Shown piece after piece: positions 3,452 through 40,475 of a stretch of DNA of 64,000 nt. The notes beneath the pieces are model-generated. The model ran no database searches. It saw nothing but the letters and a program-made list of their open reading frames with translations, and was not told where the DNA came from. Positions within the stretch are counted from its first letter, which is position 1. Every line of letters starts with the position of its first letter. The stretch spans positions 11,972 to 75,971 of the forward strand of contig CAZIBP010000001.1 of assembly GCA_964537665.1 (NCBI GenBank), given 5' to 3'. This DNA is from an uncultured Pseudomonadales bacterium. GTDB taxonomy: Bacteria; Patescibacteriota; Microgenomatia; UBA1400; PJMF01. The translations under genes and the position numbers were made by a program.

Positions 3452-4450
3452 TTAAAATAAATGTTTATCTAAATATTTAGGTCGTTGGCCCACTCCAGAG
3501 GGAATAATTTTTTTGACATAAGACATTTCTTTCAAAACTTGCGCCACTGCAATTTCATATTTGGGCAAAGTTAAAACGTGGACGTTAAAACCAGTATTAA
3601 TGGTAAAATAAACTGGTATACCAGATTTTCTTAATTTTCTAACTGTTTGCATAACCGCAATTGTTCCTGGATAAAGTAATAAAATACTTGGTTGACTAGT
3701 CAATAAAATGCTGTGAAATTCCAAAGCTTCTGCCTCAACCAATTCTCCCAAAGTCTTAAAGTCATTTTGGTAAATAGCTTGTTTAACAGCAAATAACTTA
3801 TTTGCAATTTTGGCTTGACGTGCCAAGAAAAATGGGCTCGTTGCTGCCAATTCATGACCAGTGGTAGAACTCATGTCTTTTTTATCTTCTGAAACGATTG
3901 CCACTAAATCGCGAATTTCAAAATCTTGAGGATCAGCAAAACTCTGGGCATAAGATTGCTCAGAAGTGTCGGCATCCAACCACTCAACAAAACCGCCACA
4001 AACACAGCGACAAGCAGTTCCAGATCCTTTTCTGGCTAGAATTGAAAGTTCTTTTTCTGACAAGTCCAAACCAATGGCCTTACTAGCAGCTAGAGTTAGA
4101 GCAGCAAAACCAGATCCAGAGCTAGAAAGACCAGTACTCTTGGGAAAATTATTCTCCGAAACCACTTTGGCAAAAATAGTCTGACTCACAAGTCCTTTTT
4201 CTTTGGCCAAAGTTCTAATACGATTTAAGTGCTCCACCACGCGTGAAACCTCATCTTCTTCAATTTCACCATTAATTATTAATTCATCTTGAGTTAGATT
4301 TGCTAAAAACTCCACCGTGGTGATGGTATTTAGAGAATTCAAAATCATTGAAATACTACCATTAGCTGGCAAACGCAAAGTGTTATCCTTTTTGCCCCAA
4401 TATTTCACCAAAGCAATATCACTCCCCGCCTGCACCGTAATTTTTTGCAT
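3452..4450 (-). CDS. mvaD: Diphosphomevalonate decarboxylase (GHMP family)
   Basis: N-terminus ...DIALVKYWGKKD..., GLSSSGSGFAALTLAASKA GHMP motif, and ...TACRCVCGGFVEW..., all typical of MVD. Last gene of the mevalonate operon. Confidence 0.8.
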   Translation of the reverse strand: MQKITVQAGSDIALVKYWGKKDNTLRLPANGSISMILNSLNTITTVEFLANLTQDELIINGEIEEDEVSRVVEHLNRIRTLAKEKGLVSQTIFAKVVSENNFPKSTGLSSSGSGFAALTLAASKAIGLDLSEKELSILARKGSGTACRCVCGGFVEWLDADTSEQSYAQSFADPQDFEIRDLVAIVSEDKKDMSSTTGHELAATSPFFLARQAKIANKLFAVKQAIYQNDFKTLGELVEAEALEFHSILLTSQPSILLLYPGTIAVMQTVRKLRKSGIPVYFTINTGFNVHVLTLPKYEIAVAQVLKEMSYVKKIIPSGVGQRPKYLDKHLF

Positions 4451-4454
4451 AAAA

Positions 4455-5447
4455 TTATTTTTCCACTCTCACTCCGGGAGCATTCATTGTTACTTCAATA
4501 ATTTTACCACCGGCTTTTGTAATAGCTGCTGCGACCTTCAGTCTGTCATTGTGTCCCGTCAAAGCCAACATACAATCTCCACCACCAGCTCCCGAAAGCT
4601 TGGCCCCCATTGCTCCAGCAGCTTTACTAGCAACAATTAAATTCTCTAATTCAATGCTACTAACTCGCAACTGACGCAACAAGTTTTGGTTTTGATCCAT
4701 TAATGAACCCAAATGCGTCCAATCTTGAGATTTAAGGCTTCGTTTGGCCTGTTGGACAAGCAAGGTAATTTTTGTAAAAATATCCGTAGTAAAGTCTTGA
4801 TGTTGATTAGCTAAGTTTTGCACCATTCTAACTAAGGTGGCTGTATCAGCTTTTATACCTGTATAGCCAACTAAAAATGGCAAACTTTCCAATTCAATTT
4901 GTTCAATTAATTTATGATTTTTGGTATTTGCATTCAAAGGAGTAAAATAAATCGTTCCTCCCCAAATTGCCGCAGCAATGTCAAAACCAGAAGCCACTCC
5001 TTGCACCTCTAAAACCGTTTTATAGCAGAGCTGAAAGAGCTGATCATTAGTCATTGGCACTTCATAAAATTCACTCAGAGCCTTAGCAAAAGCGACTGTG
5101 CTGGCACTACTAGAACCCAAGCCGTAAGAAGATTTGAATTCGTTTTGACTACAAACGTGAATAGTTTTTTTCTGAGGATATTTTTCCAAAAAAAACTTAT
5201 AACAATTTTCAATAAAACTTACTTCTTTTGGCAAATCCTGATTACCAAGATCTTTAATATTTTTTGAGTAAGCTCGTAAACCAAGATCGGGAGCATCAAG
5301 AACAAAAAGTTCCTCCCCATTTTCTTCAATGGTAATTGATAAGCGACGATCAACAGCCGTTACGATGCAAGGATGACCAAAAACCACACTATGTTCACCA
5401 AAAAGCATAAGTTTGCCTGGTGCTGAAGTTCTAATTACTTTTTTCAT
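4455..5447 (-). CDS. GHMP kinase, mevalonate-kinase-like (mevalonate or phosphomevalonate kinase candidate)
   Basis: N-terminal SAPGKLMLFGEHSVVFG, GLGSSSAS ATP-binding motif, GVASGFD motif. 4-bp overlap with the upstream paralog. Confidence 0.65.
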   Translation of the reverse strand: MKKVIRTSAPGKLMLFGEHSVVFGHPCIVTAVDRRLSITIEENGEELFVLDAPDLGLRAYSKNIKDLGNQDLPKEVSFIENCYKFFLEKYPQKKTIHVCSQNEFKSSYGLGSSSASTVAFAKALSEFYEVPMTNDQLFQLCYKTVLEVQGVASGFDIAAAIWGGTIYFTPLNANTKNHKLIEQIELESLPFLVGYTGIKADTATLVRMVQNLANQHQDFTTDIFTKITLLVQQAKRSLKSQDWTHLGSLMDQNQNLLRQLRVSSIELENLIVASKAAGAMGAKLSGAGGGDCMLALTGHNDRLKVAAAITKAGGKIIEVTMNAPGVRVEK

Positions 5448-6307
5448 ATAATTCCCAATTTAGTTCTTAAAAAAGGCCAACCCCAATTTTGCAATTCTTT
5501 TTCAAAAGTTGGCGCGTCTTCATGAAAAGCTAAAATATAACCAGAACCAGTTGCTACTCCACCAGCTCCAGTAATTTTGCAAAAAGCACCCAGTTGTTGC
5601 AATTTCCTAATAATTTGCCTGGCAACATTTCCCACCACGCCAAGTTCCTCCAAAAAAAGTTGATTCTCATTTAATAAACCAGGATCAAAATGACCATTTT
5701 CTAAATCAATTAACATTTTTTGACTCAAATCGCCAATTTGGTGCAAAATTTTTTGATTTCTTACCTGACTAGCAACTTTTGCCACCATTTCTCCGGTTGA
5801 TTCTTTAGCTGCACCAGAATCGATTAGGAAAAAAACTCGTTTATTAAGCGCAGCTGTGGAGATTCTTGTGAATATGCCCCTTCTGAAGGCAATAAGTCCC
5901 TCATAAACTACAATGCTCGGATCAGCTCCGCTAGATTTACCATGAATAAAATTTTCTGCCTCTAGAACTAGCTTATAAAGTTGGTCCAAATTAAGTGGAT
6001 GATTACAAAAATGAGCTAATTCTTTCAAAACTGCTGCAGCAAAAGCTGCTGAAGAACCTAAGCCTGATTTTTCTTGCAAAGAAGATTCAACTTTTAGACC
6101 AAAAGAAGGCACTTTTTGATCAATTGCTTTGGCAAAAAGAGCAATGAGATGCTGTAGATATAAATCTTGTTGTTGATGATGATTCAAAACACCAACCCTG
6201 ATAGTTGCTTTAACGCCCAAATTTAAACTAGCCAAAATAGCAGTTTGCCCAGCAACAACACTGTGTTCACCAGTTAAAATAACTTTACCAGGTGCAAAAC
6301 TAGACAT
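5444..6307 (-). CDS. Mevalonate kinase (GHMP family)
   Basis: FAPGKVILTGEHSVVAG, GLGSSAAFAAA, and the HGKSSGADPS motif of mevalonate kinases. Confidence 0.7.
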   Translation of the reverse strand: MSSFAPGKVILTGEHSVVAGQTAILASLNLGVKATIRVGVLNHHQQQDLYLQHLIALFAKAIDQKVPSFGLKVESSLQEKSGLGSSAAFAAAVLKELAHFCNHPLNLDQLYKLVLEAENFIHGKSSGADPSIVVYEGLIAFRRGIFTRISTAALNKRVFFLIDSGAAKESTGEMVAKVASQVRNQKILHQIGDLSQKMLIDLENGHFDPGLLNENQLFLEELGVVGNVARQIIRKLQQLGAFCKITGAGGVATGSGYILAFHEDAPTFEKELQNWGWPFLRTKLGII

Positions 6308-6617
6308 GACTCGCCTTCAAGCCGTAGCAGATAACTTCCTGCTGGGCTTCTTTCTTAATTTTGCGCAACACTATTTCCACCTCATCACCAACCATAAATT
6401 CTTGATGAGCGGCTCCCATTAAGGAAATTCTCTCTTTATCTAGTTCTATCAATAAATAAGCATAAGGCAACAATTCCACCTGATCAGTCGCCGCCACTTC
6501 CATCATTGAAACAGCTAGTACTTTGCCTCTTTTACCCAAATATTTTGCCCAATTTTGATTAGATCGCCAATATTCTGTAATTTGCATAAAATCTTTCCAT
6601 CTAAACAAATAAATCAA
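6300..6617 (-). CDS. DUF35-type OB-fold protein, scaffold partner of archaeal thiolase/HMG-CoA synthase
   Basis: 105-aa ORF immediately downstream of the thiolase and HMG-CoA synthase genes. Size and operon position match the archaeal DUF35 component; identity from sequence alone is weak. Confidence 0.55.
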   Translation of the reverse strand: MIYLFRWKDFMQITEYWRSNQNWAKYLGKRGKVLAVSMMEVAATDQVELLPYAYLLIELDKERISLMGAAHQEFMVGDEVEIVLRKIKKEAQQEVICYGLKASHV

Positions 6618-6785
6618 AACTTAGTCCTTTAACAGGAGACCATTTACAGGAGCTGATTAATAAACATAAATAAACAATTATGTTTATAGACAGCGACTGC
6701 AATGAGTGCAGAAGAAGATTGTCAACTTAAACAAGCTAATAATTTTCGTCTAACGTGTCTCATGTTAAAGGACTAAGTTTTGATT
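6612..6785. repeat. 23-bp perfect inverted repeat (aatcaaaacttagtcctttaaca, 6612..6634, and its exact reverse complement, 6763..6785) flanking a 128-bp spacer
   Basis: Read directly. The arms overlap the stop of the thiolase gene and the start of the DUF35 gene. Confidence 0.75.
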
Positions 6786-7888
6786 CCTAATATATTAACC
6801 ACCGCAGTTGCCCCACTTCCACCAACATTGTGCGCGAGTGCTCGCTCAAATTGTCCAGATTCAATTAGGGCAGATAAGAAAGCAATCTGCTTGACACCGG
6901 TAGCTCCAACTGGATGCCCACAAGCTTTTAATCCACCAGATGGATTGATGACTACTTGACCTCCATAACTTGCCTGATGATTAGCAATTGCTGCTGCGGC
7001 TTGACCTTTAGCAAAAAAGCCCAAATCTTCTGCTGCCAAAATTTCTGCAATACTAAAACAATCATGGACCTCAATTGCTTGAATATCTTTTTGACTCAAA
7101 GCAGCCATTTTAAAAGCTTGTTTGGCTGCTTTGGTGGTTGCCGCCAATTGACCTAAATCCTGGCGATCTTGTAATGCTAGGGTGTCCTGACCATGTCCAA
7201 AACCGAGAATTTGCGTTTTGCGTGAAGATTTTTTGCTACTTAAAATCACTGCTGCCACACCATCACTAATTGGGGAGCAATCTAAAAGTCTAAGCGGTGA
7301 AGCCACCAAAGGAGAATTAGAAACTTCTTCCAAAGTGAATTTTTTGTGGAATTGAGCTTTGGGATTACTAAAAGCGTGTAAGTGATTTTTCACAACTACA
7401 CTCGATAATTGTTCGCGACTGGTGCCATAGCGATTCATGTGATAATTAGCCAAGATCGCATAAAGAGCTGGAAAAGTTGAACCATACTCTTTCTCTCGAC
7501 TAGCTGCAGTAGCCAAAATTGCACTAGTCTGACTACCTGCTACATCAGTCATTTTTTCCACCCCCAAAACCAAAACAGTCTGATATAGACCGCTAAGTAG
7601 AGCTTGCTGAGCTGCAATCACTGCCAAACCACCCGAAGCACAAGCTCCCTCAACACGCATTGCAGGAGGAAAATGTTCAAACTGCTCACTAACCAAAGCA
7701 CCTAAATGTCTTTGTTCATTAAAACTACCACCAGCTTTATTAGCGACAAAAATTGCATCAATTTCTTGAGATTTGATTGCTGAATCAGTCAAAACACCAG
7801 AGACTCCCTCCTGAACTAAATCGGTTAAACTTTTTGCCCAAAGTTCTCCAAACTGGCTAATGTAGCTACCAATTACTTTAATGTTCAT
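6773..7888 (-). CDS. Thiolase (acetyl-CoA C-acetyltransferase), archaeal-type short form
   Basis: 371 aa with the active-site region VEGACASGGLAVIAA and a C-terminal GHPVGATG motif typical of the thiolase fold. Overlaps the HMG-CoA synthase gene by 11 nt. Confidence 0.75.
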   Translation of the reverse strand: MNIKVIGSYISQFGELWAKSLTDLVQEGVSGVLTDSAIKSQEIDAIFVANKAGGSFNEQRHLGALVSEQFEHFPPAMRVEGACASGGLAVIAAQQALLSGLYQTVLVLGVEKMTDVAGSQTSAILATAASREKEYGSTFPALYAILANYHMNRYGTSREQLSSVVVKNHLHAFSNPKAQFHKKFTLEEVSNSPLVASPLRLLDCSPISDGVAAVILSSKKSSRKTQILGFGHGQDTLALQDRQDLGQLAATTKAAKQAFKMAALSQKDIQAIEVHDCFSIAEILAAEDLGFFAKGQAAAAIANHQASYGGQVVINPSGGLKACGHPVGATGVKQIAFLSALIESGQFERALAHNVGGSGATAVVNILGIKT

Positions 7889-8963
7889 TCTGATTCCTCA
7901 TCTTTTGATATTCTGCTAAATTAACGTTTTTTAATCCAGCAATCTGCTCAGCAATTAACTTAGTGTATTTTTTTCTCTGCTTGGTCAAGTGCGTAGTAGT
8001 CTCAAAAAGGAAAGCATCAGCTCCAGATCCAGAACCATATGAACAGACCAATATTTTGGCCTTTTCTGGAGCAGTGTCCAAAACAGCGCAAAGAGCCAAT
8101 AGTGAAGCTGCCGCATAAGTATTGCCAATTTCTTTAACAATTAATGAAGGAGCTAATTGTTTAGCGCTAAAACCCAATTGTTGAGCAACTTGTTGTGGAA
8201 ATTTAGCATTAGGAGTGTGAAAAACACAAAAATCTATATCTTGAGTCTGTAAATTGACTTCATTCATTAAGGCTCGAGTTGCCATACTAACATGTTTGAA
8301 ATAAGCTGGTTCACCAGTAAATCTACCAAAATGTTGTGGGTAGGATTCCTTCGGCTTTCGCCAAAAATCTGGAGTGTCTGTGGCAACTGATTTGGTTGCC
8401 AATAATCTAGCTATTAACTGATCACCATTAATATCACTACCAATGATGAAGGCGGCGGCGCCCGCCGCCGCCGTATACTCTAATGCATCTCCTGGACGAG
8501 CCTGAGCAGTATCTGCTCCGATTGCTAGTGTGTTTTTTGCCATCTGGGCTTGCACATAAGCAGCAGCAATTTGTAAAGATTGCGAGCCAGCTTTACAAGC
8601 AAATTGTAAATCCGCCATACTCAAAAAATTATTTAAACCCAATGCTTCTTTAACAACACTGCCTGATGGTTTAACAGCATAAGGATGGCTTTCACTCCCA
8701 ATAAAAAGAGCGCTAATGTTTTCAGCCAAACCATGATTATCTAAGAATCTATTAAGGGCAATTTTGCCAGCATCAGTAGCCAAAGTGATTGTATCTTCAT
8801 CTAAACTAGGGATGGTTTTTGCATAAACACCAAGTGATTTGACTAAATCACCACTCTTGGCTTGGCTCTGAGCAATGATGCTTGTGGCAACTTTTTGCTT
8901 TGGAATGGCTGCTCCGTAAGCAATAATCCCTACCTGATTTTTTTTATTTTCTAGATTTTGCAT
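7878..8963 (-). CDS. Hydroxymethylglutaryl-CoA synthase, archaeal-type short form
   Basis: 361 aa with a condensing-enzyme fold (GSESHPY..., FACKAGSQSL, HTPNAKFP resembling the archaeal HQPNxKF motif). Sits in an operon with thiolase and DUF35. Confidence 0.7.
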   Translation of the reverse strand: MQNLENKKNQVGIIAYGAAIPKQKVATSIIAQSQAKSGDLVKSLGVYAKTIPSLDEDTITLATDAGKIALNRFLDNHGLAENISALFIGSESHPYAVKPSGSVVKEALGLNNFLSMADLQFACKAGSQSLQIAAAYVQAQMAKNTLAIGADTAQARPGDALEYTAAAGAAAFIIGSDINGDQLIARLLATKSVATDTPDFWRKPKESYPQHFGRFTGEPAYFKHVSMATRALMNEVNLQTQDIDFCVFHTPNAKFPQQVAQQLGFSAKQLAPSLIVKEIGNTYAAASLLALCAVLDTAPEKAKILVCSYGSGSGADAFLFETTTHLTKQRKKYTKLIAEQIAGLKNVNLAEYQKMRNQNEH

Positions 8964-8968
8964 TTGAT

Positions 8969-10195
8969 TTACCTCGCTAAATGAGCATGAGCTGCTGCCA
9001 AACTATGATTACTAAGTGCTGCCAAACCAGAAATTTCAGCTGCCAACACTCCCACCGCCAAGATTGCTGCTAACTGGGTAGGACTTAGCGTTTTTTTTGT
9101 TTGGTGGATTAAATTGCGCAGCTCAAATTGGCTAGGTAAACTAGTACCACCACCCACACTCCCAAGTGGCAAATCAGGTAAATTAACAGCTAAATAAAGG
9201 TTTTTCTCACCGGAAGCCGCCAATTCTTCCTCCACAATGGTGCTGCCCTGGCTAGCTTCTGTGACGTGAGCCAAATCTTGACCTGTGGCCAAATAAAAAG
9301 CTGCCGCTACATTGGCAAATTGCATATTATTAGCAAAAGAGCCGGCCAAATTTGAACCAATTAAATTCTTGCTCACATGAGTTTTGAATAAGGTTTGAGA
9401 TTCTGTTTTAAGAGTTTGTTGTAAAACCACTTCATCTAAGAACACTTCTGCCTGAGCTGTATAAGCTCTGCCAAGCAATTGATTGATAAATGAAGCTTTT
9501 TTGTCTGTGCAGACATTACTAGAAATAGCTAACATTTCTATATTTGGATATTTGATCAGAAACTCCTCCCACAGTTTTTGCAAAGCAATTGTAACCATAT
9601 TCATCCCCATAGCTTCACCGCTAAAAAAGCTAAAACGCACATAAACCTGACGACCTCTGACAAAACTTTGTAAACAAAGAAATTGCAAATGAGAGCTGGT
9701 TTTCTCCGTAATCATTTTAATTTGCGAGAGTATTGCTTCTTTTTCAAGATAATCAGCAAAAGCAAAAGCTTGCTCGCCATTTTTAAAGGCAAAAACAGGT
9801 GCTCTGGTAATGCCAAAATTTTTGACAATAACATTTGCTCCGCCAGCTTGATTAATTGCTTTTAGACCCCTATTAACACTGGCTACTAAAGCCCCTTCAC
9901 TGGTGGCTAATGGAACAAAGTATTCTTCAGTTTGACCATGATTAATCCTCAATTTGACCGGACCAGCCAAACCCACTGGCACCGAAACTGCACCGATCAT
10001 ATTTTCACAGTTGTGTTGATTGGCTCGACTCAATTCTGGACTCACTGAAAAAAGATGTTGGCAATCTAGCTTGCGCCATTTTTTTTGCACCTCAGCTTGT
10101 CTTGCCGCAATGGCTTGCAAATCGCTTTGAGTTGATTTTTTTGCTTGAAAGAATGACATTACATATCTAATAGTCGCAAAAAAGAACAAAATCAC
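8969..10195 (-). CDS. HMG-CoA reductase (class I-like catalytic domain)
   Basis: ENMIGAVSVPVGLAGPVKLRINHGQTEEYFVPLATSEGALVASVNRG is a near-canonical HMGR signature. The true start may be an internal Met (MSFFQAKK). Confidence 0.85.
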   Translation of the reverse strand: MILFFFATIRYVMSFFQAKKSTQSDLQAIAARQAEVQKKWRKLDCQHLFSVSPELSRANQHNCENMIGAVSVPVGLAGPVKLRINHGQTEEYFVPLATSEGALVASVNRGLKAINQAGGANVIVKNFGITRAPVFAFKNGEQAFAFADYLEKEAILSQIKMITEKTSSHLQFLCLQSFVRGRQVYVRFSFFSGEAMGMNMVTIALQKLWEEFLIKYPNIEMLAISSNVCTDKKASFINQLLGRAYTAQAEVFLDEVVLQQTLKTESQTLFKTHVSKNLIGSNLAGSFANNMQFANVAAAFYLATGQDLAHVTEASQGSTIVEEELAASGEKNLYLAVNLPDLPLGSVGGGTSLPSQFELRNLIHQTKKTLSPTQLAAILAVGVLAAEISGLAALSNHSLAAAHAHLAR

Positions 10196-20301: not shown

Positions 20302-20760
20302 TTGAAGATGAAACGTATTTTTTTCTTAGTTAGTCTTGTGTTATTTTTGCTTAGTTTAGGTTCTTCTATCCTAAGAACTGGTCAAGTTTATGCAGTAGAT
20401 GATGAAGGCGAAGGTGGTGGAAACGGAGGAGGCGGAGTGGAACTACAAAACCTAGAAACTGTAGGTATTCCCATCGGCAACAAATTGGTTCTAAAAAATG
20501 GCTCAGCAGTACAAGATGTTTTTAACAGCACTGATGATATGGTTAATTTAATCGTTAAAGTGCTTTTCGTCGGAGCAGGCTTTGTGTTATTTTTTATGAT
20601 TGTGGGAGCTGGTTTTGCTATGATTAAAGGAAGTGGAGACGACAAAAATAAGGCCAAAACCACCATGACTTCTGCTTTGGTTGGTTTTGTAATTATGTTT
20701 TCTGCTTATTGGATCGTGCAAATTATCCAGTTAATTACCGGTATTAATATGAATTTTTAA
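20302..20760 (+). CDS. TrbC/VirB2-like pilin paralog 1 (signal peptide, Gly-rich segment, TM-loop-TM core)
   Basis: Signal peptide, GEGGGNGGGG, and core FAMIKGSGDDKNKAKTTMTSALVGFVIMFSAYWIVQII matching the consensus shared by all seven paralogs. Confidence 0.6.
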   Translation: MKMKRIFFLVSLVLFLLSLGSSILRTGQVYAVDDEGEGGGNGGGGVELQNLETVGIPIGNKLVLKNGSAVQDVFNSTDDMVNLIVKVLFVGAGFVLFFMIVGAGFAMIKGSGDDKNKAKTTMTSALVGFVIMFSAYWIVQIIQLITGINMNF

Positions 20761-20805
20761 ACAAATGCACAAAATAGTTTATAATCAAAGATAGAAAAGA
20801 CAGAA

Positions 20806-21234
20806 ATGAAAAGAATTATCTTTAGCCTAATTTTTACCGTCTCCATGCTACTGCTTAACAATCAACTAGCAACGGCTCAAAGTGTCTTTGGCCCAATTGA
20901 AGCTCCAGCTGGAGTAGCTGAATTTAATAGCAAAGCTGGTGCAGGAGCCAATAACATCGGACTTTTAATCTTTGTTTCCAACATGATTAAAGTTATCACA
21001 ATTGTAGCCGGCATTTGGGTGCTATTTAATTTTGTTATTGCTGGCTTCACTTACATCACCGCCAATGGTGATAGCAGCGCTTACGCCAAGATTGGTGAAA
21101 AATTATCATTTAGTGTTTCTGGTTTGGTTTTGATTGTTGCTTCCTACACGATTGCCGGAATTATTAGTTTAATCGTTTTTGGCGATGCCACTTTCATTAT
21201 TAATCCAGATATACCAACAGCAATAGGACCATAA
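20806..21234 (+). CDS. TrbC/VirB2-like pilin paralog 2
   Basis: Signal peptide plus core FTYITANGDSSAYAKIGEKLSFSVSGLVLIVASYTIAG. Confidence 0.55.
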   Translation: MKRIIFSLIFTVSMLLLNNQLATAQSVFGPIEAPAGVAEFNSKAGAGANNIGLLIFVSNMIKVITIVAGIWVLFNFVIAGFTYITANGDSSAYAKIGEKLSFSVSGLVLIVASYTIAGIISLIVFGDATFIINPDIPTAIGP

Positions 21235-21235
21235 T

Positions 21236-21589
21236 ATGGCAGGAATTGGATCAATTGAACCGATTACAGAAGCAAGAGCACCAGAGTCGCTGGATGAAGT
21301 TGGTTTGACCACATCTCTGGAAACTTATGTTAGTGACATTATTGGCTTGATCACCGCACTTGCAGCTCTATTCTTTATTGTTTATTCATTCCTGGCAGCT
21401 TTTGAATGGGTCACTGCAGGTGGCGATAGTGGCAAAGTGGAAAAAGCCAAAAACAGATTTATTTGGGGTACTCTAGGATTAATCTTAATTGTAGCTAGTT
21501 ACTCAATTATTGGCTTAATTGGCAGCTTGGTAGGTATTCCTATTTTGAGTCCAGGCGAGCTAATTAAAACTCTAAACCCAGCAAATTAA
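21236..21589 (+). CDS. TrbC/VirB2-like pilin paralog 3
   Basis: Core FEWVTAGGDSGKVEKAKNRFIWGTLGLILIVASYSIIG. 2-nt spacing from the previous gene. Confidence 0.6.
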   Translation: MAGIGSIEPITEARAPESLDEVGLTTSLETYVSDIIGLITALAALFFIVYSFLAAFEWVTAGGDSGKVEKAKNRFIWGTLGLILIVASYSIIGLIGSLVGIPILSPGELIKTLNPAN

Positions 21590-21591
21590 TT

Positions 21592-22095
21592 ATGAAACTC
21601 AAATTAAACAAGCAAATCGTTTTAACTACCTTAGCTTCTCTGGTGATTTTCCTAACTTTAGCTGCCAATTCACAAGCCGCCATCACCAATCCAGTCATTG
21701 GTGATTTAGGTACTAGTGAGGGTGTGGAAGATGGCAGCAAATTTGTTAGTTATGCTGTTTACCTGTGGAAAGTAAGTATCAATTTGGGTGCATTGGCGGT
21801 AATTGCTTTTTTTCTGTGGGGAGCATTTGAATGGATTACTGCTGGATCAGATAGTAAAAAAACAGAAACTGCTCGCAGCAGAATGACCAACGCCGTAATT
21901 GGCTTAATTATTTTGGTTTCCTCATTTACTATCTTGAGTTTTGTTAGCAAAATTTTCTTCGGTGAAAATTTTGATTTGCTAAAATTAACTTTTCCCACCC
22001 AACTTGAGGAAGGAAGCTCTAGTTTAAACTCCAGTTTAAATACCAATGGAACTAATGCGACACCAACTACTCCAGCCTTAGGAACTAATCCTTAA
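21592..22095 (+). CDS. TrbC/VirB2-like pilin paralog 4 (with C-terminal Ser/Thr/Asn-rich tail)
   Basis: Core FEWITAGSDSKKTETARSRMTNAVIGLIILVSSFTI. Confidence 0.6.
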   Translation: MKLKLNKQIVLTTLASLVIFLTLAANSQAAITNPVIGDLGTSEGVEDGSKFVSYAVYLWKVSINLGALAVIAFFLWGAFEWITAGSDSKKTETARSRMTNAVIGLIILVSSFTILSFVSKIFFGENFDLLKLTFPTQLEEGSSSLNSSLNTNGTNATPTTPALGTNP

Positions 22096-22103
22096 TAAAT
22101 AAT

Positions 22104-22442
22104 ATGTCAAAACAACTCGCTATTACTTTAGATATTGCCGGAGAAGCCAACACTCAAGGCATACAAGGTGCTCAATATCATTCTAATAGCGATGGCGGCT
22201 TCGGAATTTTCTTTGGTAACATCATCAGTGCCGCCATGACCATTGCTGCTATTTTGGTTTTGGCTTTTTTGGTGCTAGGAGCAATTGAATGGATCACCTC
22301 TGCTGGAGATAAAAGCAAAATGGAGAGTGCTAGAAATAAAATTAGCAATGCCATCATTGGTCTAATCATCTTATCCGCCACTACAGCAGTTTTCTTGTTG
22401 TTGGAACAATTTTTAGGAATAGATGTTTTGACTTTTAATTAA
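22104..22442 (+). CDS. TrbC/VirB2-like pilin paralog 5
   Basis: Core IEWITSAGDKSKMESARNKISNAIIGLIILSATTAVF. Confidence 0.6.
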   Translation: MSKQLAITLDIAGEANTQGIQGAQYHSNSDGGFGIFFGNIISAAMTIAAILVLAFLVLGAIEWITSAGDKSKMESARNKISNAIIGLIILSATTAVFLLLEQFLGIDVLTFN

Positions 22443-22486
22443 AATTTGACTAAACTTGATATAATATATAAATAAGGAGTTATCAT

Positions 22487-22891
22487 ATGAAATCATTGAA
22501 GAAATTTGTCTTAGCTAGCGGAACCGCTCTAAGTGGCTTAGTTGCCAGCGCAAGTTCTGTCTTAGCAGCAGTAAATATCGAGAGAATTGATACTGGTAAA
22601 GGCTATGCCACTAATTTTGGTACTATGTTTAGTTCTATGCTAAACGTGGTGATGTTAATCGCTGCTCTCTTAGTCTTTGCTTACATGATTTGGGGCGGCA
22701 TCGAATGGATCACTTCAGGTGGAGATAAAAGTAAAGCAGAAAGTGCTAGAAACAAACTCACTGCTGCTATTATTGGTTTGGTAATTATTGCTGCTTCATA
22801 CGCCGTAGTGACACTAATCGTTCAATTCTTGGGCTTTAGTGACTTCAATGACGTCTTTACTAATGTCGGAGATATCAATAATCCTCGATAA
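22487..22891 (+). CDS. TrbC/VirB2-like pilin paralog 6
   Basis: Signal peptide plus core IEWITSGGDKSKAESARNKLTAAIIGLVIIAASYAVV. Confidence 0.6.
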   Translation: MKSLKKFVLASGTALSGLVASASSVLAAVNIERIDTGKGYATNFGTMFSSMLNVVMLIAALLVFAYMIWGGIEWITSGGDKSKAESARNKLTAAIIGLVIIAASYAVVTLIVQFLGFSDFNDVFTNVGDINNPR

Positions 22892-33782: not shown

Positions 33783-34889
33783 TCATGTAACTCTAAAAGG
33801 CATAGCGATATAAAAATAATCCGCTCTTTTTTTATCCTTAAAAATCGCTGGTTTTAGGCTTTCATTCATTCCAAAAACCAAAATCTCTGGCTTAACCGCA
33901 TTGATAAAATCAATTAAATAATTAACATTAAAAGCAATTTCTCCACTTTCGCCAGATGGATTATTAATTTCAATCTCTCCAGTATATTCTCCAAAAGATG
34001 GAGAAAATGAGTTAATTTTCATTTTATCTTTATCTAAAGTGATTTTAACAATATTTGAAACTTCTCTTGAAAAAATTGCTGCTCTTTTAAGTTGAATTAA
34101 AAATTCCTCACTTTCAAACTCTATCATGAGAGAGAAATTTGGAGGAATGATTTTCTCATATGGAGGATAATCTCCTTCAATTAGTCGCACGTACATTTCC
34201 ACATTACTTAATTTAAATAGCAATTGTTTTAATTCGTCTGAAACTAAAATTTCTACTAAAAGAGCCTCTGTTTGATGAGCAATTCGATAAAGTTCCTCGA
34301 GAGCTTTGGCTGGAATTAGAATTGTTTTTTCTTGATTCGAATTAATCTCGCTTAGAAAAAGATTGCTTAAACGAAAACCATCTGTTGCCACTACCTCTAA
34401 ACCAGTTTGCTTAAATTTCAATAATAAAGCTGTTAAGACTGGACGGCTTTGATCTATACCTGCACAAAAAGTAACTAAATTCTTAATTTTTTCCAAGTTT
34501 GGCAAACTTAAATGAAAAGAATCTCCTACAACTTGTGGAAAATTTGGAAATTCATCACTTTTCTGACAAGACAATTTACTCACTGTTTTATTTTGAGTAA
34601 TAATCAGAGAATTTTCCTTTAATTCTAATTTAACTTTACCTGTTTCTAAGGAATTAATTAGACTTTTGAATAATTCACCATTTACAATTAAATCTCCCTC
34701 TTCCTCTGTTTCTACTATTAGTTCTGTTTTAATACCTAGATATAAATCAGTAGCTGATAAAGTTAGAATATTTTCTTTCACTCGCAAAAGAATCGAAGAC
34801 AAAATAGTTATTTGTGGTTTACTGGGAATTACTTTCTGTAAATAATTTAGCGAGTTTTTTAGATTTTCTTGTAAAACACTTAATTTCAT
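33783..34889 (-). CDS. dnaN: DNA polymerase III beta sliding clamp
   Basis: MKLSVLQENLKNSLNYLQKVIPSKPQITILSSILL... typical DnaN N-terminus. 368 aa, three-domain size. Confidence 0.85.
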   Translation of the reverse strand: MKLSVLQENLKNSLNYLQKVIPSKPQITILSSILLRVKENILTLSATDLYLGIKTELIVETEEEGDLIVNGELFKSLINSLETGKVKLELKENSLIITQNKTVSKLSCQKSDEFPNFPQVVGDSFHLSLPNLEKIKNLVTFCAGIDQSRPVLTALLLKFKQTGLEVVATDGFRLSNLFLSEINSNQEKTILIPAKALEELYRIAHQTEALLVEILVSDELKQLLFKLSNVEMYVRLIEGDYPPYEKIIPPNFSLMIEFESEEFLIQLKRAAIFSREVSNIVKITLDKDKMKINSFSPSFGEYTGEIEINNPSGESGEIAFNVNYLIDFINAVKPEILVFGMNESLKPAIFKDKKRADYFYIAMPFRVT

Positions 34890-35117
34890 ATTTCTTTTTA
34901 TTTAATTATATATTTTTAGTAGTTGTAGTAGTAGTCTCTGTGTGTAAGTTAATATTCTGTCGACTTCGATCTGGTATTTCATTAATAATGACTGCGTAAA
35001 AACGATCTTATTTTGTTGATTATTTTGTTAATTATGGTGAATTTCTGTCTAAAAATAAATAAAGTTTTTCACAGTCCTATAAAGTTCTTAGTTTTTTGTT
35101 AACAAGCTTTTCACTTC

Positions 35118-35149
35118 TTTTCCACCATTTTTTCCACAATTGTGGAAAA
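35118..35149. promoter_or_regulatory. Cluster of DnaA-box-like sites (TTTTCCACC, and TTTTCCACA/TGTGGAAAA as a head-to-head palindrome) in the dnaA-dnaN intergenic region; candidate oriC element
   Basis: ttttccacc at 35118..35126; ttttccaca at 35130..35138; tgtggaaaa at 35141..35149. One mismatch from the TTATCCACA consensus. An AT-rich intergenic region of about 300 bp surrounds it. Another TTTTCCACA lies at 36842..36850, upstream of dnaA. Confidence 0.5.
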
Positions 35150-35196
35150 AGTAATTGATAATTTGTTTAAAAAACATAAATAGATTGCTATATAGG

Positions 35197-36753
35197 TCAA
35201 TTTGAGATAGCAATTAAGGACATTTTCATAGCAGAAACATCCTGTTGAATGTTTTGATTTAGAATTAAATCTTGCTCAATCTTTTTAACCGCATGAATTA
35301 CACTGCTATGATCTCTTCCAGCAAACCATTGGCCGATTTCTTCAAGAGGAATTTGTAATTCATTGCGTAATAAATACATTGCAATATGTCTAGCCTTAAC
35401 TAGTTCTTTACTGCGCCTTTTTCCTCTAACAGCACTTTGTTTAATTCGATAATGATTAGCGACGGTTTTAATAATATCTTGAGGTTTAGCTTTAATGAAT
35501 TTTTGTTGGTTTTGCTTTATTTCAGATTGTAGAATCTTATCAATTAATTCAACATTTAAGCTTAAATTTTGCAACTCCACAGCTGATCTGATCTTTTTAA
35601 TAATTCCTTCAATCCTTCGAGCACTGTCTACTTGACTAGCAATTTTTTGTGCTAGTTCAATTGGAACATCTAATTTATTAGTTTGTGCTTTTAATAATAA
35701 AATTGCCGTTCTTAGTTCAAAAGTAGGTTGTTGGATATCAATCATTAAGCCAGCCTCAAAACGAGATCTCAAGCGGTCTTCTAAGAGGCTTATTTCTTGT
35801 GGAGGGCGATCTGAAGTTAGAATAATTTGTGAGTTAATTGCAGTTAAAGCATTAAAGGTGTGAAAAAATTCTTCCTGAACTGCGGTTTTGCCAGCGATAA
35901 ACTGAATATCATCAAGGAGGAGTAGATTTGTCTTGCGATATTTGTTTTTCAATTGAAGGGTATTATGACTTTTAATTGCTCTTACAATTTCATTAGTAAA
36001 TTGCTCACCAGAAGCATAAATAATCTCTGCGTCAGGATTCTTTTGTAATAAATGGTGGGCCACAGCATGAATTAAATGTGTTTTTCCCACTCCAACACCT
36101 CCATATAAGAAAAGGGGATTATAGCTAATACCAGGATTATTGGCGACAGCGGTGGCAGCAGCATGAGCCATTTCGTTGCTAGATGAAACAGCAAAGCTCT
36201 CAAAGGTGTAATCTTGACGCAAACCAATTTGTTGGGCTCTAACCTTTAATCTATCAAAAGTGTTGCTGCTGATATTGGCTTGAGAAAAAAGTTCTTCAAC
36301 AGTTGGAGAAGATCTAACACTTTCCCTAATAGAAAAACCCTTGTTATCTATTAAATTACTTCTGAATTGATCATAGTTTTGTTGATTAATTTCTTTTTTA
36401 GAGTCGTTGTTAATCGGTTCTTGATTTTCAATTTTTATTTGACCGGTTTTTTTGTCTAGATTTTGTTTTAGGTCGGTTACAATAAATTCGATCTCTAATG
36501 GTTTGTTAATATATTTTTCTAAAGCGGTTTTAATTTGAGAATATAAATTTGTTCGCAGGTTGGTGACATGAAATGCGGTCATACAACTAATTGTTGCAAC
36601 AGCTTTTTGATTATCTTCAATCTTAATTGAAGTGAGAGGGCTAGGAACGATCCAGGTATTAAAAAATGCAGGGCTAAGGCTGGCTTCCAAATCTAGTTTT
36701 GTCATTTGCCAAACCTGCTTAATTGTTTCAGCATCATAGACCTGCTCTGACAT
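35197..36753 (-). CDS. dnaA: Chromosomal replication initiator protein DnaA
   Basis: Walker A GGVGVGKTHLIHAV, sensor/box VII regions, and C-terminal DNA-binding domain (...KELVKARHIAMYL...). 518 aa. Confidence 0.9.
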   Translation of the reverse strand: MSEQVYDAETIKQVWQMTKLDLEASLSPAFFNTWIVPSPLTSIKIEDNQKAVATISCMTAFHVTNLRTNLYSQIKTALEKYINKPLEIEFIVTDLKQNLDKKTGQIKIENQEPINNDSKKEINQQNYDQFRSNLIDNKGFSIRESVRSSPTVEELFSQANISSNTFDRLKVRAQQIGLRQDYTFESFAVSSSNEMAHAAATAVANNPGISYNPLFLYGGVGVGKTHLIHAVAHHLLQKNPDAEIIYASGEQFTNEIVRAIKSHNTLQLKNKYRKTNLLLLDDIQFIAGKTAVQEEFFHTFNALTAINSQIILTSDRPPQEISLLEDRLRSRFEAGLMIDIQQPTFELRTAILLLKAQTNKLDVPIELAQKIASQVDSARRIEGIIKKIRSAVELQNLSLNVELIDKILQSEIKQNQQKFIKAKPQDIIKTVANHYRIKQSAVRGKRRSKELVKARHIAMYLLRNELQIPLEEIGQWFAGRDHSSVIHAVKKIEQDLILNQNIQQDVSAMKMSLIAISN

Positions 36754-36883: not shown

Positions 36884-39091
36884 TTATTTTGGTGGTTGAT
36901 AGTCGTTTATACTATAAATCCCGTGTTGATCTGGTTTAACTTCTTTTGAAGTTGCTAATTTTTCTTTTTGATCTGTTTCTTCAAAAACTGTTTTGATTTT
37001 ATAATCATTATCTCTATTATCCAATTCTTGGTCTGGATTAAAAGTAAGACGATCGGTTTTTAGGGCAGTTTCTGCATTTTGTTTAGCATTCTTAAGTGGA
37101 TCTTGATTGAGATCAATTTCTTTATTTTCCCATCTGGAAGCTAATTGTTCAGTATCTTTTTTGGTATTTTTAAAGTCGGTGTTATTAATTAATCGTTGTT
37201 TGCGCAGCTCTCTACTTTTTTTATATTCTTCATAGCTGGCTGTTCTTGGCTTTGAGGCAGCATTTAAAGCTTGATTAATTTCTTTATCATCTTTTTTACG
37301 TAGGATCTCTTCTGGATTAGTTGTAATGACACTGTGTTCTTGGGGTGAAGCAATCACTCTTAAGGCGACATGATTCTGACCAGCGAAGAAAATTCCTTCT
37401 CCCACATCTGAGGAGACTAATAATTGACGTTCACCCTCAGATAAATAAAAAGTTTGAGTGAGAATTGGCACTGAAGCAGTCGACTGCTTCATTAAAAATT
37501 GAATGGAAGCATTAGACACAATTGCTTTGCCATAGTCATTGTGGAGAAAGTCTTCTACGTCTTGAGTAATTGTGGTGATACCAAGATAATATTTGCGCGC
37601 TCTTTTAACCATTGAGTAAACAAAGGCAGCACTATCAGGATGCATCATAAAATACCAAGCCTCATCAATTACCAAGATACGTCTTTTAAGATTTTTCTTA
37701 ACTCTTGTCCAAATAAAATCCAAGATGACATACATGGCAATTGGGCGAAGTGATTCTTCCATTTCCTTGACCGAAAAAACAGTAAATTGAGAATGAATGT
37801 CAATATTGGAAGCTTGATCAAAAATTCCGCGAAAAGAGCCAGTGATAAATTTTTCTAAACGAGCAGCAATATCATCACTTTCATCTTGTTCCATACCAAT
37901 TAGAGCCTTATAGAGGTCTTCCATTAATGGTGGAGTATTTTTTTGGGTAGCTGGATCTGGAGTAATTCCTTTAGCTTTATAGGCAGCAATAATTGAACGA
38001 TCAAGTAAAGCTTCTTGTTGTGGGGTCATTTCACCCAGCATAACCTTGAGAAGTCCATGAATAGAGAGTATTTTTTGTCCCAATTCGTTTTCTCCCTCTT
38101 CATAAATGTTGGACAAATCAAAGGGATTAATTTTAGCCTCTGAGCCAAAAGTAAAATTAATGTATTCTCCACCAACCATTTTGCATAATTCTTCATACTC
38201 ATGTTCTGGGTCAAGTACAATGACTTCAGCATCAAACATCAGCTGTCGCAGAACTTCTAGCTTAACAGTATATGATTTGCCAGCACCAGATTTGGCAAAA
38301 ATTACCATATTGGCGTTTTCCATTTTGAAGCGATCAAAGATAACTAGAGAGTCATTATGTTCGTTGATGCCATAAACAATGCCGGTTTCCATAGTTAATT
38401 CGGAAGAGGTGAAAGGAAAAGTGGTAGCTAGGGAAGTGGTGTCCATATTTCTAGTCACAGAAAGACGATCGACACCCATTGGTAAGGTGGTTTTAAAACC
38501 CTCATCCATTTGTAGGGCAGATTTTTTGGAAACAATCATTAAGGCGCCTAAAGTGCTTTGGATGCTTTTGGTGATTTTATCTAACATTTCCTTGCTATCA
38601 GCTCGAACCGTCACATATAAGCCAAATTGAAAAAATCTTTCAGAACCGGCAGCTAACTGCTCTCGCATCGTTCTTGCGTCACTTAATTTGATTTCTGTAT
38701 TAATGTTGCTAATTTTTCCAGATCTAATATCGGAAGTAATTTCAGCTTCCATTTCTGTAATTTTGCGCTTTAGATTATCGAGAATATCGCCGGTATCTGA
38801 TGGAAAAACAAACATCGAAATATTGGCTTGTTGAGGGTAGTTGATGAGTGGTGAAAGCCAGTTGGCTGGGACAGCACGAGGATAGCCAGCAATAAATAAA
38901 GTGCGAGTGTAGGTGGAGTTAATTTTTTGGTAAGTGAAATCGACCTCAATTGCTTCTGGAGCAATAATATCTTGAATCGTTACTAAACCACGAGAAAATT
39001 CGCTTAGTTTCTCTTGAGTATATTGTTCAACATTGATTTTATTTTGATCAGTTGAAGTGATGGTTTTTTTCTTAGCAAAAAGATTAAGCAT
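36884..39091 (-). CDS. VirB4/TrbE/PrgJ-like type IV secretion ATPase
   Basis: Walker A VIFAKSGAGKSYTV, Walker B RRILVIDEAWYFM. 735 aa with the domain order of VirB4-family ATPases. Confidence 0.7.
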   Translation of the reverse strand: MLNLFAKKKTITSTDQNKINVEQYTQEKLSEFSRGLVTIQDIIAPEAIEVDFTYQKINSTYTRTLFIAGYPRAVPANWLSPLINYPQQANISMFVFPSDTGDILDNLKRKITEMEAEITSDIRSGKISNINTEIKLSDARTMREQLAAGSERFFQFGLYVTVRADSKEMLDKITKSIQSTLGALMIVSKKSALQMDEGFKTTLPMGVDRLSVTRNMDTTSLATTFPFTSSELTMETGIVYGINEHNDSLVIFDRFKMENANMVIFAKSGAGKSYTVKLEVLRQLMFDAEVIVLDPEHEYEELCKMVGGEYINFTFGSEAKINPFDLSNIYEEGENELGQKILSIHGLLKVMLGEMTPQQEALLDRSIIAAYKAKGITPDPATQKNTPPLMEDLYKALIGMEQDESDDIAARLEKFITGSFRGIFDQASNIDIHSQFTVFSVKEMEESLRPIAMYVILDFIWTRVKKNLKRRILVIDEAWYFMMHPDSAAFVYSMVKRARKYYLGITTITQDVEDFLHNDYGKAIVSNASIQFLMKQSTASVPILTQTFYLSEGERQLLVSSDVGEGIFFAGQNHVALRVIASPQEHSVITTNPEEILRKKDDKEINQALNAASKPRTASYEEYKKSRELRKQRLINNTDFKNTKKDTEQLASRWENKEIDLNQDPLKNAKQNAETALKTDRLTFNPDQELDNRDNDYKIKTVFEETDQKEKLATSKEVKPDQHGIYSINDYQPPK

Positions 39092-39092
39092 A

Positions 39093-40466
39093 TTATGCTT
39101 GGGTTTTTATTGTTTGATCCGATGGTAATTCTTGATTTAAAATTGGTTCTTGAGCTTGTTCTTCAAATTTATTTTGTAAAGGGGTGATATCCTCCCCAAA
39201 TCCTTCTACTAAGTTGCTGTCAGTCGAATTATCAATTGTTAGATTATTATTAGTGGTGTTGACAGAATTAGCGCTAAGTAAGTTTGGATCTAAATTTAAA
39301 TCAAGCTCTGGCGACTGACTATTAACTACCGGATTTTCTTGATTTGGAAGTTCTGGTGGAACTGATATTGGTGACGAAATAGGTTCCGGAATAGCATTAA
39401 CTGGTTCAGGTACAGTATTTATTGGCGTTGTTTCAATAATTGGCGGCATGTCTATTTCACTAGTGATTTCATTAGCTGTTGCCGCTTTTGCTAGATTTTC
39501 AATTTGAGGGTTGTCTGTTGTGTTGTTTAAATTTGGTTCTGGATAAATAACTGTTTGGGTCGGTTCGTTACTTAAAATCTCTTCAGCACTAGGATTGGTG
39601 GTGATCGGTGAAGACAATTCTGGTTGGTTAATATCTTGCGTAGCTGTAGTAATATTTTCGCTAGCGGCTATGAGAGTATCTTCATTATTTGAAATCGGGC
39701 TGGCAGCGGGGGTTGCTGTTATTTGATCTTGAATTAGAGGGCTTTGTTGGTTGCTTGTTTGATTATTTAGTTGCATAAATTTTCCTCCAAAACTGGCCCT
39801 GACTAGGGGAGTTGTATAATTTTCGCTGCTACTGATTTCTTGTCCTTCAGCAGCTTCAGGATTGTAATTGATATAGAAATTTTGAATAATCTCTTGAGTG
39901 GTTAATTGTCTGGTAAAAAGTCCCAAACGGTTAAATTGAGCAGTTAAATGATCTCGACGTGGCTCCAAAATGTTGGTGGCTTTTTCCAGCAAAATACTTT
40001 TTTCAACACTAGTAATGTCAAAGGCAGTTTTGCCAGGTAAAACTCCAGATGGAGTAATTAATCCCATTTCTCCAGGACTAGCCGGAACAATAATATAGAA
40101 TCTTTTTTGCAAAACATTTCTTTCTTTGATTAGAGTTGCCACGAAATCTCGATATTGTTTAATTAAAGTTGCTTTGCGATCTGAACTAGCTTTCTGGACT
40201 TGCTCTTCGAGAAGTCTTAAATATTTAGTAGCATCTTTAGTTTGAGACTGAATATTAATTTGAATTGGGTAGTTGAGAGAATTAAGCAGCGAACCATAGG
40301 TAAAAATTACGGCATCCTGTTCTTGCTCAGCCAATAAACTAAAATTCATTGTGCCAATTTGTAGAATAACTGAAGCGGTACCGTCTTTTAACAGAACCAT
40401 GTCATTGACGATGTCATAGACATCAAGAAATTCTTGCGTGGTGGAACTAATCACTTTATCGCTCAT
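39093..40466 (-). CDS. Hypothetical protein with a long Pro/Asn/Thr/Ser-rich low-complexity C-terminus, between the PrgI-like and VirB4-like genes
   Basis: 457 aa. N-terminal ~230 aa globular, C-terminal half low-complexity (PxxP-rich, ...PEPVNAIPEPISSPISVPPELP...). 1-nt gap to the VirB4-like gene. Confidence 0.4.
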   Translation of the reverse strand: MSDKVISSTTQEFLDVYDIVNDMVLLKDGTASVILQIGTMNFSLLAEQEQDAVIFTYGSLLNSLNYPIQINIQSQTKDATKYLRLLEEQVQKASSDRKATLIKQYRDFVATLIKERNVLQKRFYIIVPASPGEMGLITPSGVLPGKTAFDITSVEKSILLEKATNILEPRRDHLTAQFNRLGLFTRQLTTQEIIQNFYINYNPEAAEGQEISSSENYTTPLVRASFGGKFMQLNNQTSNQQSPLIQDQITATPAASPISNNEDTLIAASENITTATQDINQPELSSPITTNPSAEEILSNEPTQTVIYPEPNLNNTTDNPQIENLAKAATANEITSEIDMPPIIETTPINTVPEPVNAIPEPISSPISVPPELPNQENPVVNSQSPELDLNLDPNLLSANSVNTTNNNLTIDNSTDSNLVEGFGEDITPLQNKFEEQAQEPILNQELPSDQTIKTQA

Positions 40467-40475
40467 GAACTGATT

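Follow-up and report, generated by a model that had tools for sequence, protein, structure and literature searches.

How does a perfect 23-bp inverted repeat come to lie between two genes of a mevalonate operon, and does the DNA that it encloses do anything there? The question arises from a 64,000-nt stretch of contig CAZIBP010000001.1 (assembly GCA_964537665.1), called the window throughout, in which an earlier note, made from the letters alone, drew attention to two 23-bp arms at the boundary between the thiolase gene and the gene for a DUF35-like protein and suggested an RNase III-type processing site, a barrier to translational coupling or the footprint of a miniature inverted-repeat transposable element (MITE). 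We find that the element is an insertion and that it belongs to a previously undescribed family, ~150–175 bp in length, in which long complementary arms surround a 122–128-bp module. The reading that we favour, at a rough probability of 40%, is that it would be an inverton-like invertible module with a role in cis in the expression of the operon.

The repeat itself was recovered as first described: the left arm (AATCAAAACTTAGTCCTTTAACA on the plus strand) and the right arm are exact reverse complements over 23 bp with 128 bp between them, and complementarity runs on inward to give 40-nt arms that are 85% complementary. Across the whole 64 kb this is by far the strongest inverted repeat with arms lying within 400 bp. 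The suggestion that such a repeat is improbable by chance is borne out, since none of 100 dinucleotide-preserving shuffles contained a match to the arm (≤3 mismatches) and the repeat has been assembled independently in the window and at three further loci (L001, L002 and L003, introduced below), which together rule out chance or an assembly artefact. A separate and shorter repeat was also seen in the window, where two perfect 17-nt arms lie 90 nt apart (58130–58146 and 58237–58253); one is the anticodon-arm region inside a tRNA-Arg(GCG) gene (58203–58272, minus strand) and the other an inverted copy in the spacer after the open reading frame (ORF) at 56382–58085.

On the minus strand, from which the operon is read, the repeat region folds at −71.9 kcal/mol (z = −9.75 relative to shuffles), and on the plus strand the corresponding z is −11.0. 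Folding thus predicts the stem around the intercistronic region that had been proposed for the minus-strand mRNA, with 23 perfect base pairs, or 29 with one mismatch, which reaches the length expected of an RNase III-type substrate (at least about two helical turns); we noticed no rnc gene in the 64-kb window. No terminator-like site was found on either strand between 6450 and 6950: the arm stem is followed by UUUAUUUGUUU, but the stem encloses 128 nt.

Whether the spacer is an insertion was addressed by comparing orthologous operons, which were gathered through thiolase and DUF35 homologues, so that all loci compared (labelled L001, L002 and so on) are this operon and the sampling is biased. 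We refer to the thiolase/DUF35 boundary as junction 1 and to the DUF35/mevalonate kinase boundary as junction 2. Junction 1 is empty in several relatives: the thiolase stop and DUF35 start overlap as TAATG in L004 and as ATGA in L006 and L007, and lie 0–4 nt apart in L009, L012 and L013. It is filled at the identical position in the window, in an independent Logan contig (L001), in a 320-kb contig of a metagenome-assembled genome (L002) and in an ENA contig (L003). The overlap of the two genes in relatives shows the element to be an insertion at this junction, where it stands in place of the overlapping stop and start and now gives the thiolase its stop codon. The last thiolase codons were swapped out, so that the protein ends in ...ILGIKT*, and a tail containing GGAAAG was left before DUF35. 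An insertion between the two genes had been one of the original proposals, and so had a barrier to translational coupling, which is consistent with the loss here of the stop/start overlap seen in the relatives. The filled allele is patchily distributed over the thiolase tree.

The gene ends at the junction bear out only half of the overlap first described. Read on the minus strand, the right arm comprises the last base of a Gly codon, Ile-Lys-Thr (ATC AAA ACT) and a TAG stop at 6773–6775, so the repeat does overlap the end of the thiolase gene; among the 70 closest thiolase clusters, only two end in the resulting ...ILGIKT. The overlap with the DUF35 start holds solely for a mechanically assigned TTG start at 6615–6617. 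The true start is placed at the ATG at 6585–6587, 25 nt outside the left arm, because all 36 homologue clusters begin MQITEYW or MNITEYW, and the gene caller agrees; the intercistronic gap in the window is thus 185 nt. Between left arm and ATG lies the tail (24–25 nt), with the only Shine-Dalgarno (SD)-like motif, GGAAAG, at plus-strand positions 6593–6598. The tail is absent from empty sites, and similar tails occur in L002, L003 and L015 and also as the 30-nt spacer of L008, these segments being too AT-rich and short to decide homology between site types. In the window the DUF35 gene overlaps the mevalonate kinase start, and junction 2 is therefore empty there. A different kind of DUF35 end was observed at L009 (3840–3920) and in DUF35 clusters P0134–P0136, P0145, P0146 and P0151, where the protein ends in ...AEKIYV/A, two codons beyond the usual ...xHV; the DNA of this end (GAAAAAATTTATGTCTAG) resembles the left flank and tail of filled junction-2 alleles and may be an excision footprint or a pre-insertion target.

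Nine full-length copies were found, together with several hairpin copies from which the interior has been deleted, and on the sequences compared the family is known so far only from the two mevalonate-operon junctions in a clade of Patescibacteria. Diverged full-length copies occupy junction 1 in L005, L010 and L011, a few bases further downstream, after the old stop, with arms that differ from the window type (e.g., 18-bp perfect arms, TTTGTATCTTAGTCAGTC), and junction 2 in L012, L013 and L014, with 22-bp arms (GAGAAAATAAGTTCTTTGACAT). In L002 and L003 all four arms share the left-arm core AACTTAGTCCTTTAA, a mini hairpin at junction 2 having the same arm core as the full-length copy at junction 1 of the same operon. 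L015 and L016 have mini hairpins at both junctions, that at junction 1 being at the window-type site with 23-bp perfect arms. The loops of the four minis listed in Table 1 all retain the first 10–13 nt of the interior, in the reading of the antisense orientation (AAGACACGTTA or AAGACAGCTTA), which suggests either that deletions have repeatedly ended at the same point or that the short form is a distinct type. At junction 2 the arms supply DUF35 with the ends ...ERT*, ...EKT* or ...EKISSLT*, and such ends are present in several of the 36 DUF35 clusters. At most two copies were seen per genome, both in the same operon.

The record label of L002 (CAZWWE010000001.1), “uncultured Pseudomonadales bacterium”, looks wrong, as its operon relatives are named Pacebacteria or Patescibacteria; its operon proteins are 60–85% identical to those of the window (mevalonate kinase 60%, the other three genes 77–85%). 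The thiolase homologues of the window likewise carry the names Pacebacteria or Patescibacteria, and the host is therefore a bacterium of the candidate phyla radiation (CPR).

The earlier note had proposed a genome search and an operon comparison, in which relatives with neither spacer nor other copies would indicate a single insertion rather than a conserved regulator, and multiple genomic copies a MITE. The outcome fits neither. Some relatives do lack the spacer; others carry a copy at the same site, a diverged copy nearby or a paralogous copy at the next junction, and the interior, as detailed below, also occurs in both orientations. A rival view is that the family is a selfish palindromic mobile element of the MITE, REP, ERIC or Correia type, repeatedly inserted at junctions of this operon, with any effects on the operon being secondary; its interior might flip through accidental recombination between the arms, or an interior cassette might target the hairpin loop in either orientation. 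In its favour, the element is clearly inserted, close relatives have cleanly empty sites and its occurrence over the thiolase tree is patchy; at least two junctions, and two positions at junction 1, have been used; short direct repeats lie beside some copies; and miniature derivatives have the same termini. The arms also give upstream genes their stop codons, as palindromic repeats landing in gene ends do, and a different insert flanked by inverted repeats is present at a third junction in L013. That insert (L013 1223–1388, HMGS/thiolase junction) has 26-nt arms that are 85% complementary with 114 nt between them, is richer in G+C, folds at z = −4.1 and has the thiolase ATG in its right arm; it gives no match to the covariance model of the family (R1), so that the third junction hosts an analogous but unrelated-looking element.

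Searches for further copies tell against such an origin, and we consider it somewhat unlikely overall. Within the 64-kb window no second copy was found with the 23-mer at ≤3 mismatches, blastn-short, an nhmmer family profile, a 15-nt arm core or the covariance model, and a match at 56093 was rejected because it lies inside an ORF and has no hairpin. Among 185,579 GTDB species-representative genomes the exact 23-mer occurs only at the orthologous locus of L002; a 21-mer and a two-arm gapped pattern had no match in JGI metagenome contigs or IMG/VR, two core-block patterns had none in IMG/VR, and a distant blastn search of phage and plasmid collections with the element found nothing, with the limit that the GTDB and JGI scans queried the arm sequence, which is the variable part, and the core block of the conserved interior was queried only in IMG/VR. 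No transposase, integrase or recombinase domain (Pfam) was detected in any ORF of ≥110 aa in the window. Target-site duplications are likewise unconvincing, since the direct repeats beside the copies are all short or imperfect (GGAA for the window-type copy, AAATAATG / AAATTATG in L005, AAAGGCA / AAAGGAA at junction 2 of L002) with an extra 6–32 nt on one side. A multi-copy MITE can be set aside: dispersed copies are absent from the 64-kb window and the operon loci and, for the exact 23-mer, from the GTDB representatives, there is one copy in the window and there are no more than two per genome, and the termini, instead of being conserved and matching an insertion sequence or transposase, vary more than any other part of the element around a conserved interior, the reverse of a MITE defined by its terminal inverted repeats. 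Nor do these features, or the two orientations, suit the inert footprint of a MITE insertion that was first envisaged.

It is the conservation of the interior that sets this family apart. Between copies at the same site, interior identity is 0.91 for the window and L002, 0.91 for L005 and L010 and 0.85–0.89 for L012 and L013, where four-fold degenerate sites of the respective thiolase genes are only 0.43, 0.39 and 0.36 identical, saturation being expected at 0.30. The interior is thus under strong purifying selection, far above neutral sites of the host. Recent recombinational transfer was considered as the cause and rejected, since three independent same-site pairs have the same excess and the flanks directly beside the element are as diverged as the genes themselves, which makes a recent transfer of a larger tract unlikely. 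The arms behave differently, changing strongly in sequence between copies while remaining complementary within each copy. Within the interior, a 37-nt core block, GTTTATARACAGCGACTKCA.TGAGYG.AGAAGAAGAT (search form ACAGCGACTKCANTGAGYG), is nearly invariant across the copies at both junctions. A coding function was rejected: small ORFs cross the element, but their frames are not conserved and the core contains 1-nt indels. In L005 and L010, called ORFs of 38 and 46 aa begin at the old TAATG and, used as protein bait, retrieved only two clusters.

This conservation bears on two of the alternatives. Copies group by site and are 85–91% identical in spite of saturated silent sites in their hosts, as an immobile selfish copy would not be. 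A cis-acting mRNA hairpin that works in either orientation, with a functional arm stem and the interior as a passenger, could in principle be an RNase III site, a 3′-exonuclease barrier that stabilises the HMGR-HMGS-thiolase segment, or a barrier that uncouples translation. The strength of the predicted operon-sense stem is in its favour, as are the long complementary arms kept in every copy despite sequence change, the persistence of hairpin-only copies at both junctions in several lineages, and the fact that the element is always intercistronic with an SD-like motif kept downstream. Such a hairpin nevertheless leaves unexplained both the strong conservation of the interior, even in copies that are antisense to the operon (window and L002), and the one-strand fold described next, and we judge it distinctly improbable.

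Eight interiors were aligned in a common orientation that we call core-sense, which is the plus strand of the interior in the window and hence antisense to the operon. The consensus fold is a three-way junction in which the arm stem is extended inward and two helices branch off; in the window, GAGAC at 6636–6640 pairs with GTCTC at 6757–6761, and the branch helices span approximately 6645–6701 and 6703–6752. Of the cells in its 43 pairs, 94.3% are paired, compared with 87.9% in column shuffles (0/500 as high) and 34–44% in slid controls, and nine pairs have changed on both sides (1/500 shuffles). Several measures favour the core-sense strand: the consensus energy is −28.0 kcal/mol on that strand and −19.4 on the complement, G.U cells number 21 against 7 A.C cells, and the single-sequence minimum free energy is lower in five of six copies. 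For the most part, copies at one site differ from each other outside the paired columns or in ways that leave the pairing intact, and each of the three one-sided changes makes a G.U pair on the core-sense strand alone. As evidence for one strand over the other these tests are modest, with some bias because the structure was predicted on the core-sense strand. According to this model, the interior keeps a three-way-junction fold on one particular strand, with compensatory changes. When the window and four other copies were compared with Rfam 15, only noise matches well below the gathering scores were obtained, and known RNA families, ribozymes and riboswitches were set aside on that ground; a by-eye check for a hammerhead-like CUGA motif and for integron attC-like R boxes found no fit.

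Since the fold is kept on the same strand no matter which way the module faces in the operon, the interior might encode a small structured RNA that is independent of the operon and has a promoter of its own, or might act as folded single-stranded DNA; in either case its orientation relative to the operon would not matter. The invariant 37-nt block would suit this, and such an RNA would be new, as there is no Rfam match. Against it, no conserved promoter or terminator lies beside the module, the closing helix is made by the arms so that a transcript starting inside would miss it, and the interior is dispensable in hairpin-only lineages; this is the least probable of the accounts considered.

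Orientation was read with the covariance model R1: in every copy, one strand scores 120–147 bits and the opposite strand ≤34 bits. By this measure the interior is sense to the operon in L005, L010, L011 and L012 and antisense in the window, L001, L002, L003, L013 and L014. Both states occur at junction 2, where R1 matches the plus strand in L012 and the minus strand in L013 and L014. Here the arms of L012 and L013 (91–100% identical) and their flanks (72–85%) match in direct orientation, whereas the interiors, both of 122 bp, are 61% identical when aligned directly and 85% after reverse complementing. Because arms and flanks match directly and interiors only in reverse complement, the comparison indicates an in-place inversion of the arm-bounded segment between these two lineages. 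Two features of an inverton are present, namely a segment bracketed by inverted repeats (23 bp in the window, 18–23 bp in the other copies) and the occurrence of both orientations between fixed repeats and flanks, the latter between lineages (L012 versus L013 and L014). At the window's own site only the antisense state is represented (window, L001, L002 and L003).

The inverton-like reading would explain these observations as follows. The arms would be sites of DNA inversion, and the element would act as a small inverton inside a transcribed operon. Between thiolase and the distal genes (DUF35, the kinases and the decarboxylase), the polycistronic mRNA would contain the folded core-sense module in one orientation of the element and the complement of that module in the other. 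A change of orientation might then alter termination, processing or stability of the transcript at the element. In either orientation the arms could form the 23–29-bp stem in the mRNA, which would uncouple thiolase from DUF35, the latter then being translated from the SD-like GGAAAG in the tail. We favour this reading because the arms are nearly perfect, as they would be if kept matched by recombination, because the interior is conserved even where it is antisense to the operon, because both orientations occur at one site and because the size class matches that of known switches acting on transcripts. The more specific proposal, that inversion is programmed and reversible and that the segment encodes a new three-way-junction RNA with an invariant 37-nt core acting on the operon transcript in one orientation only, seems to us rather doubtful.

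Several observations weigh against an invertible switch. Orientation is the same within the assembly pair of each lineage (window and L001, L002 and L003, L013 and L014), although the paired assemblies come from different samples, and there is therefore no evidence of frequent or programmed flipping. The sequences of the arms vary between sites and lineages, which is awkward for a single sequence-specific recombinase, and the absence of a recombinase, integrase or transposase domain in the window counts in the same direction. The interior shows no convincing conserved promoter or terminator: promoter-like matches do not exceed background, and only in L012 was a terminator-like hairpin with a U tract flagged. 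The element is dispensable, since in several lineages either all of it or its interior has been lost. Finally, the two orientations could result from rare RecA- or replication-mediated inversion between 22–23-bp repeats, or the interior could have entered an already existing hairpin on independent occasions.

The closest functional parallels are found in Clostridioides difficile, where the flagellar (flgB, Cdi4) switch is a 154-bp segment with 21-bp inverted repeats in a transcribed leader, first recognised in silico as a segment that aligned between genomes only after reverse complementing (PMC5386303), and the cwpV switch is a 195-bp segment, also with 21-bp inverted repeats in a transcribed leader, that acts through a terminator (PMC2784873). 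RecV-driven inversion and mixed orientations within cultures have been demonstrated for these switches (PMC5386303, PMC2784873). The element described here resembles them in being a small segment (122–128 bp) with inverted repeats of 18–23 bp inside a transcribed region downstream of the promoter, and the interiors of L012 and L013, like the flgB segment, align only after reverse complementing. The inverted segments of flgB and cwpV contain neither promoter nor ORF, and control is exerted on the transcript (by a terminator or Rho). The differences are equally plain: those switches are known from cultures with both orientations, whereas ours is read from sequence comparison between lineages; they sit in the 5′ leaders of operons for surface structures, whereas this element lies between cistrons of a core operon for isoprenoid precursors; and it supplies a stop codon, has a covarying three-way-junction fold and has no sequence similarity to them. 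PhaseFinder-type surveys call invertons from reads of both orientations, mostly in gut Bacteroidota and Firmicutes (10.1101/2023.03.11.532203; PMC11892184). The family shares with the surveyed invertons a segment flanked by inverted repeats whose orientation differs between genomes, and a location within an operon or gene has precedent among them; it differs in that orientation was read here from assemblies of separate lineages rather than from reads. In full-text literature (Creative Commons papers in PMC, and bioRxiv) we found no description of MITEs, invertons or phase variation in Patescibacteria or the CPR.

Palindromic repeats offer a second set of parallels. The Correia elements of Neisseria, the enterobacterial ERIC sequences and REP/BIME are multi-copy, dispersed and defined by conserved termini. 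By description, the present family is like them in its length (~100–170 bp for such repeats), its long terminal complementarity, its transcribed intergenic sites in operons, its presence/absence polymorphism, its internally deleted forms and its expected mRNA hairpins, which may be processed or stabilise the transcript; it is unlike them in having only one or two copies per genome seen, in one operon, variable termini around a conserved interior and no convincing target-site duplication. Rickettsia palindromic elements are inserted in frame within ORFs and dispersed over many genes. They too are palindromes of a reduced genome that are tolerated in or at the ends of coding sequences and add residues to proteins (here IKT* to thiolase and ERT*, EKT* or EKISSLT* to DUF35), but the present copies lie at the cistron junctions of one operon, where they replace stop/start overlaps. 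Invertons and palindromic intercistronic repeats are both known kinds of element, and membership of this one in either kind is putative and unproven.

The operon is transcribed from the minus strand in the order HMG-CoA reductase, HMG-CoA synthase, thiolase, DUF35-like protein, two GHMP kinases and diphosphomevalonate decarboxylase; the coordinates of its genes and of the parts of the element are collected in Table 1.

Table 1. Positions of the element, its parts and the surrounding mevalonate operon in the window, with the mini hairpins of related loci.
Feature	Coordinates	Strand	Remarks
Left arm, DUF35 side	6612–6634	.	Half of perfect 23-bp inverted repeat
Right arm, carries thiolase end	6763–6785	.	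Other half of perfect 23-bp inverted repeat
Interior module, 128 bp	6635–6762	+ (core-sense)	R1: 130.6 bits on + versus 23 bits on −
Nearly invariant core block GTTTATAGACAGCGACTGCAATGAGTGCAGAAGAAGAT	6682–6719	+	Family consensus GTTTATAAACAGCGACTTCACTGAGTGAGAAGAAGAT
Tail	6588–6611	−	Reads TATTTGTTTAGATGGAAAGATTTT on minus strand; between left arm and DUF35 ATG
HMG-CoA reductase	8969–10195	−	
HMG-CoA synthase	7878–8963	−	
Thiolase, acetoacetyl-CoA thiolase-like	6773–7888	−	3′ end remodelled by insertion; Pfam Thiolase_N, Thiolase_C_1
DUF35-like OB-fold protein, 95 aa	6300–6587	−	PF01796 below curated cutoff
GHMP kinases, two	5444–6307 and 4455–5447	−	
Diphosphomevalonate decarboxylase	3452–4450	−	
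Mini hairpins	L002 5228–5287; L003 1712–1758; L015 920–975 and 1281–1334		Arms 17–23 bp, loops 10–16 nt

Elsewhere in the window, a tRNA-Ile with the anticodon TAT, which is uncommon in bacteria, lies a short way downstream of the operon region, at 2919–2995. The genes dnaN (33783–34889) and dnaA (35197–36753), both on the minus strand and about 28 kb from the element, are separated by a 308-bp spacer with a TTTTCCAC-type palindrome (35118–35161), and this region (33783–36753) is likely to be a replication-origin region. Paralogous arrays of type IV secretion system (T4SS)-pilin-like genes, together with VirB4/TraG-like ATPase and PrgI-like genes, occupy 20302–22891, 54706–56306 and 36884–41345, and several large ORFs have no Pfam match (e.g., 46298–49126, 49193–50866 and 51751–54678).

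Patescibacteria have minimal, tightly packed genomes, and in the genome of the window nearly all genes abut or overlap. The non-coding insert of 185 nt has persisted under strong selection inside an operon for isoprenoid precursors. To our knowledge, almost nothing is known about gene regulation in this group. The undecaprenyl carrier lipid, on which the cell envelope depends, requires these precursors. If the element is an inversion switch, it would mean that these episymbionts hedge their bets on a core metabolic pathway, and it would add a new structured RNA; a programmed switch would be the first phase-variation device described in the CPR, and its target would be core lipid-carrier metabolism, not a surface structure. 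If it is instead a domesticated palindromic repeat, it would exemplify clearly how a mobile hairpin can be kept between cistrons as a regulator, and nature already offers alleles of four types to compare: empty, hairpin-only, sense and antisense. On either reading, the family yields a concrete hypothesis open to testing with public reads, and its covariance model can be used to scan CPR genomes.

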